This document shows positions 41,615-44,770 of a DNA stretch of 64,000 bases, one piece after another (position 1 is the first letter of the stretch; each line of letters starts with the position of its first letter). This DNA is from Dictyostelium discoideum (Eukaryota). The DNA is taken from contig CM000150.2 in NCBI GenBank assembly GCA_000004695.1, forward strand, positions 3,168,001-3,232,000. The letters run 5' to 3'. The translations under genes and the position numbers were made by a program. The notes beneath the pieces are model-generated. The model ran no database searches. It had not been told where the DNA came from and saw only the letters and a list, made by a program, of their open reading frames with translations.

Positions 41615-44600
41615 ATGTTTCCATCTTATAATAATAACAACAACAACAACAATAATAATAGTAATGAAATGATTAGTACCATTCACCAATCAATTGGTCA
41701 TACTCTTTTAAATCAAGGTCATGGTTTAATTCAAAATAATATTAGTAATAATAATAATAATAATAATAATAATAATAATAATAATAATAATAATAATAAT
41801 AATAATAATAATAATAATAGCAATAATAATAGTAATAATAATAATAATATTGTTTCAAATGATTTATTTTATTTCGATAATTTAAATAATGCAATGATTC
41901 ATAATAATATGATCCAACAACAAATTGCACAACAACATTACCAACATTATTTAAATAATAATAATCCAATAATCGATAATAATAATAATATTAATAATAC
42001 TACTAATAATATTAATAATAATAATAACCACAATCACAACAACAACAACAACAACAACAATAATAATAATATCAACAACACAACCATTACACCAAATAAT
42101 GATATGATTGCTGCTCCTGTAGTTAAAAAGAGAGCCAAAAGAGCTTGCTTGAACTGTAGATCCTCAAAGGTTGCCTGTGATCATCAAAGACCATGTGTTC
42201 GTTGTACAAAGAATGGTACTGAAGATACTTGCCGAGATGTTCCAAGAAAACCAAAGGTTCCAACTAAAAGAATTAAAAAAGAACCAGTAACACCTGCTCA
42301 AAATGTCCCATTCGTTCAACAAAGTATTGCTCAAACCTTGAATATCCAAGGTTTACCATTCACTCCATCCTCATCACCATCAACACTCATTCAAACACAC
42401 CATCATCATCATCATCACCAACAACAACAACAACAACAACAACAACAACAACAACAACAACAACAACAACAACAACAACAACAACAACAACAACAACAAC
42501 AACAACAACAACAACAACAACAACAACAAATAGTACCAAGAACCAGTGGTCCTAAAAAATCAAAAGCCACCATTCTTAACACTTCATCATCATCACAACC
42601 ACTCACAACATTTGGAAATTCTACACAAGATCTTATTTCAATGGGTTTAATTGGAAATAATAATAATAATAATAACAACAACAATTTAGATAATAATTTA
42701 AATATTAATGCTGTTGCCAGTGTTCCAGCTGCCATCAATAATGCTTTTAAATTTGATGGATTTGGTGCTGCTACCAATAGTGGTGAATCCCCATTCTTCT
42801 TCAGTCAACCAAATACAACATCCACTAATAACTCAACCAATAGCAACAACACAATTACTACCACTACCACTAGCACTATCACAACAACCGCTACTCCTAT
42901 CTCATCAACCAGTGATGAATCATCAACCACAACAAAAAATACTGAAGGTGATTTACTTTCAAATATTACAAATTTGACATCATCATCACCAGCATCATCA
43001 CCAAATAGTCCTTCATCAGCATCATCAACACCACCATTAAATAATTACACTGATAATTCAAGTCCAAATAGTCCAGGTCATTTGCCATCAATCTTATCAG
43101 AAACATTATCAAAATCAACTGATGAGCTTATTGCCGTTGGTAATAGTAGTAGCAGTGGTAATAATAATAACCTTCAAAACTCTTTGGAGAATGTTTTCAA
43201 TAATCTCTCTACTCTTATCAATAATTCAACCACTTCGTTGCAAGATCCAATTAATGTCGGTTCTCCATCCACTCCATTTGGATGTTGTATGAAAAGTCCA
43301 TTTTCAATTGATGGTATCCCAGTAGAAGATCCTTCATCAACAAATTCTCAATTAATTACCTCACCAAATACTATTAAAAATATTGAAGATAATGAAAATA
43401 ACGGTATTTTAGAAATTGTTAAACATCAACAACAACAACAACTTCAACAACAACAGCAACAAGTTTTACCAAATATTTTAATGTCTGAATTAAAAAAGAT
43501 CCATCAATCATTAGAAAGAATTTCAACATTCTTGCAATTCCCAGCCAATGTACCAAGAGGTGTTTACAATCATGCTCCACGTCATCCATTGGTTCCAGGT
43601 TCTTTATTTGTACCACAAAATAATATTGAGACGGTAAATTATCTTTAAAAAAAAAACACCAAAATCCTTCCAAAAAAAAAAAAAAAAAAAAAAAAAAAAA
43701 AAAAAAAAAATATTATATGCCCATCCATAAAATTATATTTAGCCCCCTCCTTAATAATCCCTCTCCGAACCATGAAATAAATCATTTATTTTTTAATGTT
43801 TTTTTTTGTGTAACCCTACACAAAAATGACGATAAAAATAACATGTACAAAAAAAAAAAAAAAAAATATATATCCTAACACTTTTGGAATTTTTTTTATT
43901 TTTATTTTTATTCTCTTTTTAATAATAAATTAAAATATCTATCACCAATGTCACTCTCTCTGAAATTTGTAACAAATCTCTGAACCTTTTCATGTATCTC
44001 CCCTACTCCTCCCAATCTCTCTCAAAATCTGAAAATTGTAACGAATCTCTGACCCTTTTCATGTACCTCTCCCACCCTTCCCCAATCTCTCTATCTCACT
44101 TCTCTCTTTCTCTCTATTTTTTTTATTTTTATATAGAAAATTACCAAACTTTTAGAATCTAGGCTGCCATTTGCTCAATTTAGTTTTCCAACCAAAGATT
44201 GTATTAATATAAATAATTCATTTTGTAGACTACTTGGATATGAAAAGTATGTACATGTTCCATTATCATTTTACTATTTATCTTATTAATCCATCTCTTT
44301 TTCAATTTTTTTTTTTTTTTTAAATCATTTTCTAATTCCTTATTTATTTATATCCAGTGTTAGTGAATTTTATCAAATTATGCCATTAGCAATATGGGAT
44401 GATTTTGTACATAAAAAAATAATTTGTTTTACGTATGTATTGATTTTTCTTAAAAAAAAAAAAAAAAAAAAACATTTTTGTTTTAACAAAAAAAAAAAAA
44501 AAAAAAAAAAAAAATAATAGGAATAGGTATGCCCTGGAGGCAATAGTCAAAAGAGTTTATAGATTTCAAAAACCATGTGTAATGAAAAAAAGAAATGGAA

Positions 44601-44770
44601 AATATATATCAGTTCATTTGTTTGTTGAATTTGTTCAAGATTTTTCATCATTCAAAGTTTATGTGATCAATCAATATACACCAGATTTAGATTCTGATTT
44701 GTCATCAGAATATATTTGTAGAGAGTTTTTATCAAAAAATTGTTGTTTAGCATTGGATGATATTATATAG
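41615..44770 (+). CDS. Zn(2)-Cys(6) binuclear-cluster (GAL4-type) DNA-binding protein with a C-terminal PAS-like domain; probably 4 exons
   Basis: Exon 1 is 41615..43633. It is N/Q-rich, with a Zn2Cys6 motif ACLNCRSSKVACDHQRPCVRCTKNGTEDTC at about 42150-42240 and a poly-Q(~42) tract. A GTAAAT donor is followed by a ~500-bp intron. Proposed exons are 44137..44246, 44358..44432 and 44521..44770 (GTATGT donors, phases compatible). Together they encode KITKLLESRLPFAQFSFPTKDCININNSFCRLLGYEKNVSEFYQIMPLAIWDDFVHKKIICFTNRYALEAIVKRVYRFQKPCVMKKRNGKYISVHLFVEFVQDF...VINQYTPD, which has a PAS-fold signature. The alternative model is that the gene stops at 43648 (ETVNYL*). Confidence 0.6.

Follow-up and report, generated by a model that had tools for sequence, protein, structure and literature searches.

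Orthology supports a single Zn2Cys6-PAS transcription factor gene across an expanded intron in Dictyostelium discoideum

Results

We analyzed a 64,000-nucleotide stretch of the Dictyostelium discoideum genome (contig CM000150.2, positions 3,168,001 to 3,232,000), which we call the window and whose coordinates are used throughout. Region 41615-44770 of its forward strand is in all probability one gene of four exons, encoding a transcription factor of ~817 amino acids (aa) in which an N-terminal Zn2Cys6 binuclear cluster is joined to a C-terminal domain of predicted PAS fold (Table 1). A preliminary description of this DNA had proposed that the Zn2Cys6 open reading frame (ORF) continues into a PAS-fold C-terminus across a gap of 0.5 kb. 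Continuity across this gap, 503 bp long, is supported by orthologous proteins, by the position and phase of their intron, by synteny, and by a second exon that has no start codon.

To identify orthologues, the Zn-cluster stretch (window 42080-42370) was used in an exhaustive HMMER search, which returned 798 proteins with an expectation value (E) of <=1e-3. The best matches are dictyostelid: Heterostelium album PPL_05483 (P0001), Synstelium polycarpum (P0002), and Polysphondylium violaceum (P0006), with the Cavenderia fasciculata "transcriptional regulatory protein" (P0003) and an Acytostelium subglobosum protein (P0007) also at the top. The Cavenderia and Acytostelium proteins are single polypeptides, 46-49% identical to the C-terminal 202 aa of the spliced window protein on both sides of the gap. 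Each contains the helix SE[LF]KKIHQSL..I..FL.FP, which in the window lies at the end of exon 1, and, ~40 residues on, a domain that aligns with the PAS exons without internal gaps relative to the products of exons 2, 3, and 4, up to the common ending ...CL[AE]LDDI. The Heterostelium and Synstelium orthologues also hold the Zn cluster and the C-terminal PAS domain in one chain. Word-indexed protein searches with the spliced C-terminus and the Zn cluster as queries gave no matches, and a profile search returned five proteins but missed known members, such that absence from it is uninformative.

The gap coincides with an intron in the orthologous genes. The Heterostelium, Cavenderia, and Acytostelium loci have one intron each, in phase 0, after GAG TCG (E-S) and with a GTAA start, and the window donor at the aligned position reads GAG ACG^GTAAAT (ET). 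The comparison with orthologues, suggested in the preliminary description as a check, therefore favors continuity, as single proteins span the gap and an intron of matching position and phase occurs in three loci. Length is what differs, at 101 nucleotides (nt) in Heterostelium, 181 nt in Cavenderia, and 85 nt in Acytostelium versus 503 nt in the window. Gene order agrees as well: Mak16 (38733-39474) precedes the region and a TauE-family gene (47094-47549) follows it, and in Acytostelium the same two neighbors enclose one gene, with no extra gene. Taken together, the continuous orthologues, the shared phase-0 intron, and synteny indicate that the 503-bp gap is not a spacer but an orthologous intron that has expanded.

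The Heterostelium locus offers a separate observation on annotation. In H. album GL291009.1 (L002:4645-4889), the PPL_05483 model uses an internal GTAAAT donor at 4645 and skips 144 nt (48 codons, in frame and stop-free) that encode the conserved helix NEFKKIHQSLETITSFLQFP...LPCSES. Judging from the sequence of the locus, this model is probably 48 residues too short, and the orthology-consistent donor would be the one at 4789 (GAGTCG^GTAAAA).

Within the window, ORF 41615-43648 specifies a product of 677 aa in which N and Q form long runs. Splicing 41615-43633, 44137-44246, 44358-44432, and 44521-44770 yields 2454 nt, in frame, for 817 aa, with donors GTAAAT, GTATGT, and GTATGT and acceptors TAG, CAG, and TAG, i.e., GT..AG introns throughout; the compatible phases earlier assigned to the three distal exons are thereby borne out. 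Low-complexity regions rich in N and Q, the Zn2Cys6 cluster, a disordered linker in which short motifs are conserved, and a conserved pre-PAS helix all lie in exon 1. Exon 2 has no in-frame ATG and is immediately preceded by a TAG codon; lacking an ATG, it cannot begin a protein. The exon 2/3 junction (LLGYE^N^VSEF) aligns with the orthologues without a gap, the exon 3/4 junction (IICFT^NRYALEA) matches orthologue IIPFTNRYAMEA, and both fall inside seamlessly conserved blocks. In one alignment, the exon 4 product is 51% identical to the Acytostelium C-terminus. One exon encodes the whole PAS part in the loci of the other species, which marks introns 2 and 3 of the window as lineage specific.

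Other ways of joining the exons were rejected. Alternative acceptors at 44155/44156 and 44162/44163 have phases incompatible with the conserved phase-0 donor. An alternative in-frame donor at 43609/43610 (GTACCA) lies off the orthologous donor and would drop a VP that matches the conserved LP/TP of the orthologues. No plausible ATG-containing mini-exon was found in the 503-bp gap, where ORFs are in other frames or of low complexity.

The designation of the DNA-binding module as a Zn2Cys6 domain in the preliminary description is confirmed. Pfam PF00172 (Zn_clus) matches residues 176-214 with an E of 3.2e-6 and 27.6 bits, versus a cutoff of 21 bits, and all six cysteines are present, with spacing CX2CX6CX5CX2CX8C, which falls within the family pattern CX2CX6CX5-12CX2CX6-8C. 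The cluster is 62-72% identical to those of the dictyostelid orthologues P0001, P0002, P0003, P0006, and P0007. The Pfam scan of the window protein reported no fungal middle-homology domain (Fungal_trans).

Evidence for the PAS fold comes through homologues and structure prediction. A profile of the C-terminal domain, run against the best 150 of the 798 Zn-cluster matches, retrieved four PAS-bearing orthologues and seven compact metagenome proteins at E of 1e-13 to 1e-4. These compact proteins are 313-425 aa long and all have an N-terminal Zn_clus domain, and six of the seven also have the upstream helix, indicating that the Zn2Cys6-PAS layout is more widespread than the named dictyostelids. 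Two of them match known PAS families: P0097 exceeds the PAS_8 gathering score (22.8 versus 21.8 bits) and matches PAS_9 at an E of 1e-4, and P0041 matches PAS_3 at an E of 2e-3. The SELKKIHQSLERISTFLQF helix of exon 1 is kept in Cavenderia, Acytostelium, P. violaceum, and six compact homologues, and AlphaFold models it in the Acytostelium orthologue as helix 7-28, with a predicted local distance difference test score (pLDDT) of ~91 at its center. For the Synstelium C-terminus, AlphaFold with a shallow alignment gave a model of low confidence (pLDDT 57.7) that nevertheless has the PAS order of strands and helices, and Foldseek with this model returned PAS/LOV chains only. The predicted fold has the order beta-beta-alpha-alpha-alpha-alpha-beta-beta-beta, with a five-stranded antiparallel sheet. 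Searches of PDB sequences with the C-terminus and its family profile gave chance-level matches only (a Holliday junction resolvase, E 0.47, and a designed protein, E 0.61). On the strength of the homologues and the modeled structures, the C-terminal domain is predicted to be a PAS fold.

The compact proteins (P0046, P0041, P0097, P0035, P0052, P0069, and P0092) come from metagenome/Logan contigs of 1.1-1.4 kb and are apparently intronless; the helix is seen in all except P0041.

The reference annotation treats the distal exons differently. Exon 3 from its first Met (44380) together with exon 4 gives exactly XP_646140.1 / Q55DJ1, the product of DDB_G0270592 in D. discoideum AX4. Exon 2, and with it PAS strands 1 and 2, is missing from this model. 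Probably, then, one gene has been split in the reference annotation, and DDB_G0270592 is most readily understood as the C-terminal piece of the Zn2Cys6-PAS gene. As for the N-terminal part, Forbes et al. 2019 paired PPL_05483, the top match of the present search, with DDB_G0270590, DLA_03420, and DFA_07960 as orthologues, placed DDB_G0270590 among three deeply conserved dictyostelid "Gal4-like" factors, and scored it as "down after growth" and "growth" (growth-stage specific). Given this pairing and the neighboring gene number, the Zn-cluster gene of the window is probably DDB_G0270590. None of three sequences (the 677-aa ORF, the 817-aa model, and a model of 809 aa with an alternative donor) was matched in an exact look-up, indicating that the annotated DDB_G0270590 product differs from all three. 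Exon 1 carries very long CAA (poly-Q, ~45 residues) and AAT (poly-N) tracts, at window positions 42380-42530 and 41730-41830, whose length probably differs among strains and which probably hamper look-ups by exact sequence. Full-text literature searches for DDB_G0270590 and DDB_G0270592 found no papers.

Paralogues place the gene within a broader dictyostelid set. The "Gal4-like" factors catalogued by Forbes et al. 2019 (DDB_G0270590, DDB_G0291348, DDB_G0274877, and suvA) share their Zn-cluster type with paralogues such as P0023; the catalogue lists the GAL4 domain only and does not mention a PAS domain, whereas the window gene carries one. P0023 itself has a near-identical Zn cluster and no match to the PAS profile. 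Another paralogous Zn-cluster model, P0028 (Synstelium polycarpum gene11989), runs into a presenilin-like multi-pass membrane region (YDLFAVLCPGGPLKMLVETAQ...) and is probably two merged gene models.

Intron 1 is distinctive in composition and content. Its G+C content is 25.8%, compared to 19% and 9% in introns 2 and 3 and 22% in the window, and its sense strand has 21% C and 5% G. The orthologous introns are also pyrimidine rich, with C over G on the sense strand (C 40% and G 6% in Acytostelium; C 18% and G 3% in Cavenderia). Repeats of ~65 bp had been reported at 43957-44023 and 44025-44093, which is within a few bases of the tandem repeat found here at 43959-44092, with its 69-bp period. 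Tandem Repeats Finder gave 1.9 copies of period 69 with 86% matches and a score of 205, a direct-repeat search gave two 55-nt copies of 85% identity, 69 nt apart, and the pairwise identity of the copies is 86-88%. The 26-nt core of the repeat occurs exactly twice in the 64-kb window, versus 0 expected from 100 shuffles.

The simplest account of the repeat is that a tandem duplication contributed to the growth of an intron that was C-rich ancestrally, and most likely the repeat has no sequence-specific function beyond adding pyrimidine-rich intron sequence. The splicing or transcriptional role suggested in the preliminary description gained no positive evidence: no Rfam family matched 43550-44600 at E<=1, the 64-kb window holds no further copy, and the repeat unit has no significant similarity to the orthologous introns (13/18 positions between D. 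discoideum and Acytostelium, reached by 173/200 shuffles).

An isolated C-rich box, ccaccccctccccctttcccccactgccaaatt, was also noted at window 45808-45845, ~1 kb downstream of the gene in intergenic DNA of 12% G+C; it resembles the C-rich CCAAT-type boxes of intron 1.

Two functional readings of intron 1 deserve consideration nonetheless. In the first, the repeats are a transcriptional element, either acting within the intron as an enhancer or silencer or serving as an alternative promoter, in keeping with a duplicated C-rich box near the 3' part of intron 1 and with the similar box in intergenic DNA. The opposite strand of the repeats reads GGGGAAGGGTGGGAGAGG, which we take to resemble the G-rich/CA-rich boxes of the Dictyostelium G-box binding factor. 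However, such boxes are short and compositionally simple, the unit is not significantly conserved across species, and the Zn-cluster gene is reported to be growth-phase expressed, whereas targets of the G-box factor are post-aggregative. We consider a transcriptional element improbable.

The second possibility is one gene with regulated isoforms, in which retention of intron 1 or polyadenylation within it yields a PAS-less protein of 677 aa (...ETVNYL) that could compete for DNA sites and the C/T-rich repeats are splicing-regulator sites that set the isoform ratio. The unusual size of the intron would suit such regulation, as would its beginning: the first 15 bases are 14/15 identical between D. 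discoideum (GTAAATTATCTTTAA, 43634-43648) and Heterostelium (GTAAAATATCTTTAA, L002:4789-4803), and in both species retention would bring an in-frame TAA at codon 5. Cavenderia and Acytostelium, however, do not have this early stop in common with them. Intron 1 of several species has a C-rich motif that contains CCAAT, with P. violaceum and Acytostelium sharing CATCTCCAAT[T/C]CTCCCC at 16/18 positions and the D. discoideum repeat copies containing the related CTCCCAATCTCTC and TCCCCAATCTCTC (44007-44024 and 44077-44094). The 16/18 match was reached in 1/200 shuffles, but it is one of ten pairs tested and the shuffles were mononucleotide only, and the D. discoideum repeat unit itself falls short of significance, as described above. 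The conservation of the intron start and of the CCAAT motif keeps a regulated-isoform reading open without establishing it, and we hold it to be unlikely.

A more fundamental alternative is that there are two genes, as annotated. The Zn2Cys6 gene would then terminate with the TAA of 43646-43648, and its transcript would receive its poly(A) tail in the A-rich stretch, following a fission in the D. discoideum lineage, and the C-rich repeats would be the promoter of an independent small gene, DDB_G0270592, encoding a PAS fragment. Several observations lean this way or count against a single gene. The reference annotation has the distal exons as a separate gene. Intron 1 is unusually long and G+C rich for this genome, with a length typical of a spacer, and its stop after 4 codons, A39 run, and AATAAA strings resemble a 3' end followed by intergenic DNA; the C-rich box at 45808-45845 provides an example of similar sequence in true intergenic DNA. 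The 43633^44137 junction is placed by orthology and reading frame only, and at this junction the D. discoideum protein has ~7 extra residues relative to the orthologues. The PAS fold claimed in the preliminary description stands through homologues and predicted structure and not on the window sequence alone, which stays below the cutoffs of PAS_3, PAS_9, and PAS_8 (E 0.14 each), and the structures were predicted on orthologue C-termini with the window exons as alignment rows rather than on the spliced window protein. Finally, the P. violaceum model P0006 (L001:5290-6450, AJWJ01000571.1) stops exactly at the intron-1 donor (..TTAGA^GTAAGT), the next gene is BTB/TLD, and neither tblastn nor a profile search of six-frame translations found a PAS exon in the 1.1 kb before that gene. 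Conservation of this donor without the PAS exon makes it possible that the PAS part was lost or separated in some lineages; loss, relocation, or misassembly could explain its absence.

Arguing against two genes is the structure of the distal part itself. The conserved first third of the PAS domain comes from exon 2, which nevertheless offers no in-frame ATG and follows immediately upon a stop. Translation from the exon-3 Met would give a product that lacks PAS strands 1 and 2 as well as the F..LLGY motif and would probably not fold. In position and phase, the donor agrees with the orthologous intron of three species, and the exon-1 helix accompanies the PAS domain in most PAS-bearing homologues. 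We therefore regard two separate genes as very improbable and retain the single four-exon gene.

Two further features of the neighborhood were recorded. The gene at window 38733-39474 is Mak16 / ribosomal L28e-like, and Mak16 lies upstream in P. violaceum too. A tRNA-Thr gene (anticodon AGT) is present at window 54819-54890 on the + strand.

Table 1. Features of the proposed Zn2Cys6-PAS gene region, in window coordinates unless a locus is named
Feature	Position	Strand	Description
Exon 1	41615..43633	+	673 codons; from ORF and splice model; tail aligns with Cavenderia, Acytostelium, and P. violaceum orthologues
Zn2Cys6 binuclear cluster	42140..42256	+	Residues 176-214, ACLNCRSSKVACDHQRPCVRCTKNGTEDTC, six Cys; then basic stretch PRKPKVPTKRIKKE
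Conserved helix SELKKIHQSLERISTFLQF	43484..43540	+	In exon 1; N-terminal flanking helix of the PAS module
Intron 1	43634..44136	+	503 nt, phase 0, GTAAAT...TATATAG; read as expanded orthologue of an 85-181-nt intron
In-frame TAA	43646..43648	+	Located 12 nt inside intron 1; terminates the 677-aa ORF if intron 1 is retained
A39 homopolymer run	43672..43710	+	Inside intron 1
Tandem direct repeat	43959..44092	+	C/T-rich; each copy ends (C)CCCAATCTCTCT
Exon 2	44137..44246	+	Encodes KITKLLESRLPFAQFSFPTKDCININNSFCRLLGYE: PAS strands 1-2 and F..LLGY motif; aligns with orthologue RPFASWGFPNRNLIDTNNVFAKILGF and similar
Intron 2	44247..44357	+	111 nt, GTATGT...CAG; missing from the three orthologous loci examined
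Exon 3	44358..44432	+	VSEFYQIMPLAIWDDFVHKKIICF, PAS helices
Reference model DDB_G0270592	44380..44770	+	100 aa, "hypothetical protein"; from exact-sequence look-up
Intron 3	44433..44520	+	88 nt, GTATGT...TAG; missing from the three orthologous loci examined
Exon 4	44521..44770	+	F-alpha helix, last three PAS strands, conserved tail SSEYIxRE..KNxCLxLDDI; stop TAG 44768-44770
Shared C-rich CCAAT motif	L001 ~5625-5645		P. violaceum
Shared C-rich CCAAT motif	L004 ~4963-4982		Acytostelium

Discussion

To address what kind of factor this gene encodes, we compared the window protein to known families. The fungal AcuK/AcuM subfamily is defined by a Zn2Cys6 cluster plus a PAS domain, and the PAS domain is needed for function (PMC12719309). 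Its members include Ert1/Rds2/Gsm1 of Saccharomyces cerevisiae, Aod5/Aod2 of Neurospora crassa, Rse3/Rse2 of Podospora anserina, Zcf11/Cwt1 of Candida albicans, and Pas2/Rds2 of Cryptococcus neoformans, which control gluconeogenesis, alternative oxidase, and hypoxic adaptation, with the PAS domain thought to mediate heterodimerization (PMC12719309). The orthology-supported splice model likewise has an N-terminal Zn2Cys6 cluster and a PAS domain towards the C-terminus of one polypeptide, with no Pfam Fungal_trans region detected. Its PAS core NNSFCRLLG (N-x2-F-C-x-L-x-G) resembles the published Pas2 core NPEFCELVG. The published subfamily motif G-X1-I-X3-N-X7-G (PMC12719309) is matched only in part by the window sequence K-D-C-I-N-I-N-N-S-F-C-R-L-L-G: the N-X7-G part fits, but a D stands where the first G should be, and once N-X7-G is aligned, I-X3-N is shifted by one residue. 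The growth-phase specificity reported for DDB_G0270590 would fit a metabolic role.

There are differences as well. The subfamily is described as fungal, whereas the window protein is from Amoebozoa; its linker is long and N/Q rich, and its C-terminus ends in a conserved ...LDDI tail. AcuK/AcuM factors are characterized as an obligate heterodimer of two paralogues, both with PAS domains, which recognizes CCGN7CCG-type sites and governs genes of gluconeogenesis and alternative oxidase. Among the best 150 of 798 Zn-cluster matches there is one PAS-bearing paralogue per dictyostelid species, and hence no evidence for a heterodimer pair of the AcuK/AcuM type. The matches listed comprised dictyostelid and metagenome proteins only, with no fungal AcuK/AcuM sequence among them, and a literature search found no paper linking Dictyostelium to AcuK/AcuM. 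A putative Rds2 sequence, which had no match in an exact look-up, scored 34 bits with the Zn profile and 8 bits with the PAS profile and serves as a lead only. In layout, then, the window protein resembles an AcuK/AcuM-type factor. Membership of the family is plausible by analogy, in a comparison that covered layout and published motif.

The preliminary description had likened the protein to white-collar factors, a comparison that we do not sustain. White-collar proteins combine a GATA-type zinc finger with LOV/PAS domains, and WC-1 has a flavin-binding LOV domain with the motif GXNCRFLQ, which in LOV domains places the adduct-forming cysteine in the E-alpha helix. A PAS-family domain and a zinc-based DNA-binding domain in one transcription factor are features shared with WC-1/WC-2, but the DNA-binding domain of the window protein is Zn2Cys6 and not GATA-type. 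The GXNCRFLQ motif, or any NCRFL-type motif, is absent from the window protein and its orthologues, the corresponding region being ...IWDDFVHKKIICFTNRYA..., which leaves a light-sensing, white-collar-like reading unsupported; the layout is instead that of fungal AcuK/AcuM. The combination had also been called unusual; the layout itself is known in fungi (PMC12719309), and here it occurs in Amoebozoa, outside fungi. The bHLH-PAS factors (ARNT, HIF, AHR, NPAS, and PER/BMAL) have bHLH and tandem PAS-A and PAS-B domains in contrast to the Zn2Cys6 cluster and single PAS domain of the window protein, and sequence identity is only 10-15%.

These comparisons suggest how the gene and its product may have been shaped. 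The protein would consist of an N-terminal Zn2Cys6 cluster and basic stretch, a long low-complexity linker, the conserved helix, the C-terminal PAS domain, and an acidic tail ending in ...LDDI. By analogy with known families, the Zn cluster would read CGG-type sites, and the PAS domain with its flanking helix may serve in dimerization and possibly in small-molecule or redox sensing. The factor would then resemble AcuK/AcuM (Ert1/Rds2), which reprogram carbon and respiratory metabolism; expression that is growth-phase specific and falls after growth would fit a metabolic rather than a developmental role. At the level of the gene, a short phase-0 dictyostelid intron appears to have grown ~3- to 6-fold in the D. 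discoideum lineage, in part, it would seem, through the 69-bp tandem duplication of its C/T-rich 3' part.

A bolder proposal is that the Zn2Cys6-helix-PAS layout is ancient, or was shared horizontally between fungi and Amoebozoa, and that in D. discoideum intron 1, which sits exactly where the DNA-binding half meets the PAS half, has grown into a regulatory switch yielding a PAS-less, possibly dominant-negative factor. Such a switch would operate by intron retention or intronic polyadenylation, governed by the conserved intron start and stop, the CCAAT motifs, and the tandem repeats. We regard this combination as a doubtful, speculative extension of the single-gene model.

The single four-exon gene amounts to a gene-model correction in a model organism, as a catalogued "Gal4-like" factor would carry a PAS module and DDB_G0270592 would be its C-terminus. 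Knockouts, expression tables, and domain censuses that separate the two models, the Zn-cluster gene and DDB_G0270592, would mislead. The finding also points to a Zn2Cys6-PAS factor outside fungi, although this layout has been discussed as fungus specific and even as an antifungal target. As the layout is kept across the dictyostelid orthologues examined and in the compact metagenome proteins, it bears on the origin of AcuK/AcuM-type regulators. For this uncharacterized regulator, it suggests a testable hypothesis, namely, that the factor may control carbon and respiratory metabolism through PAS-mediated dimerization or sensing.

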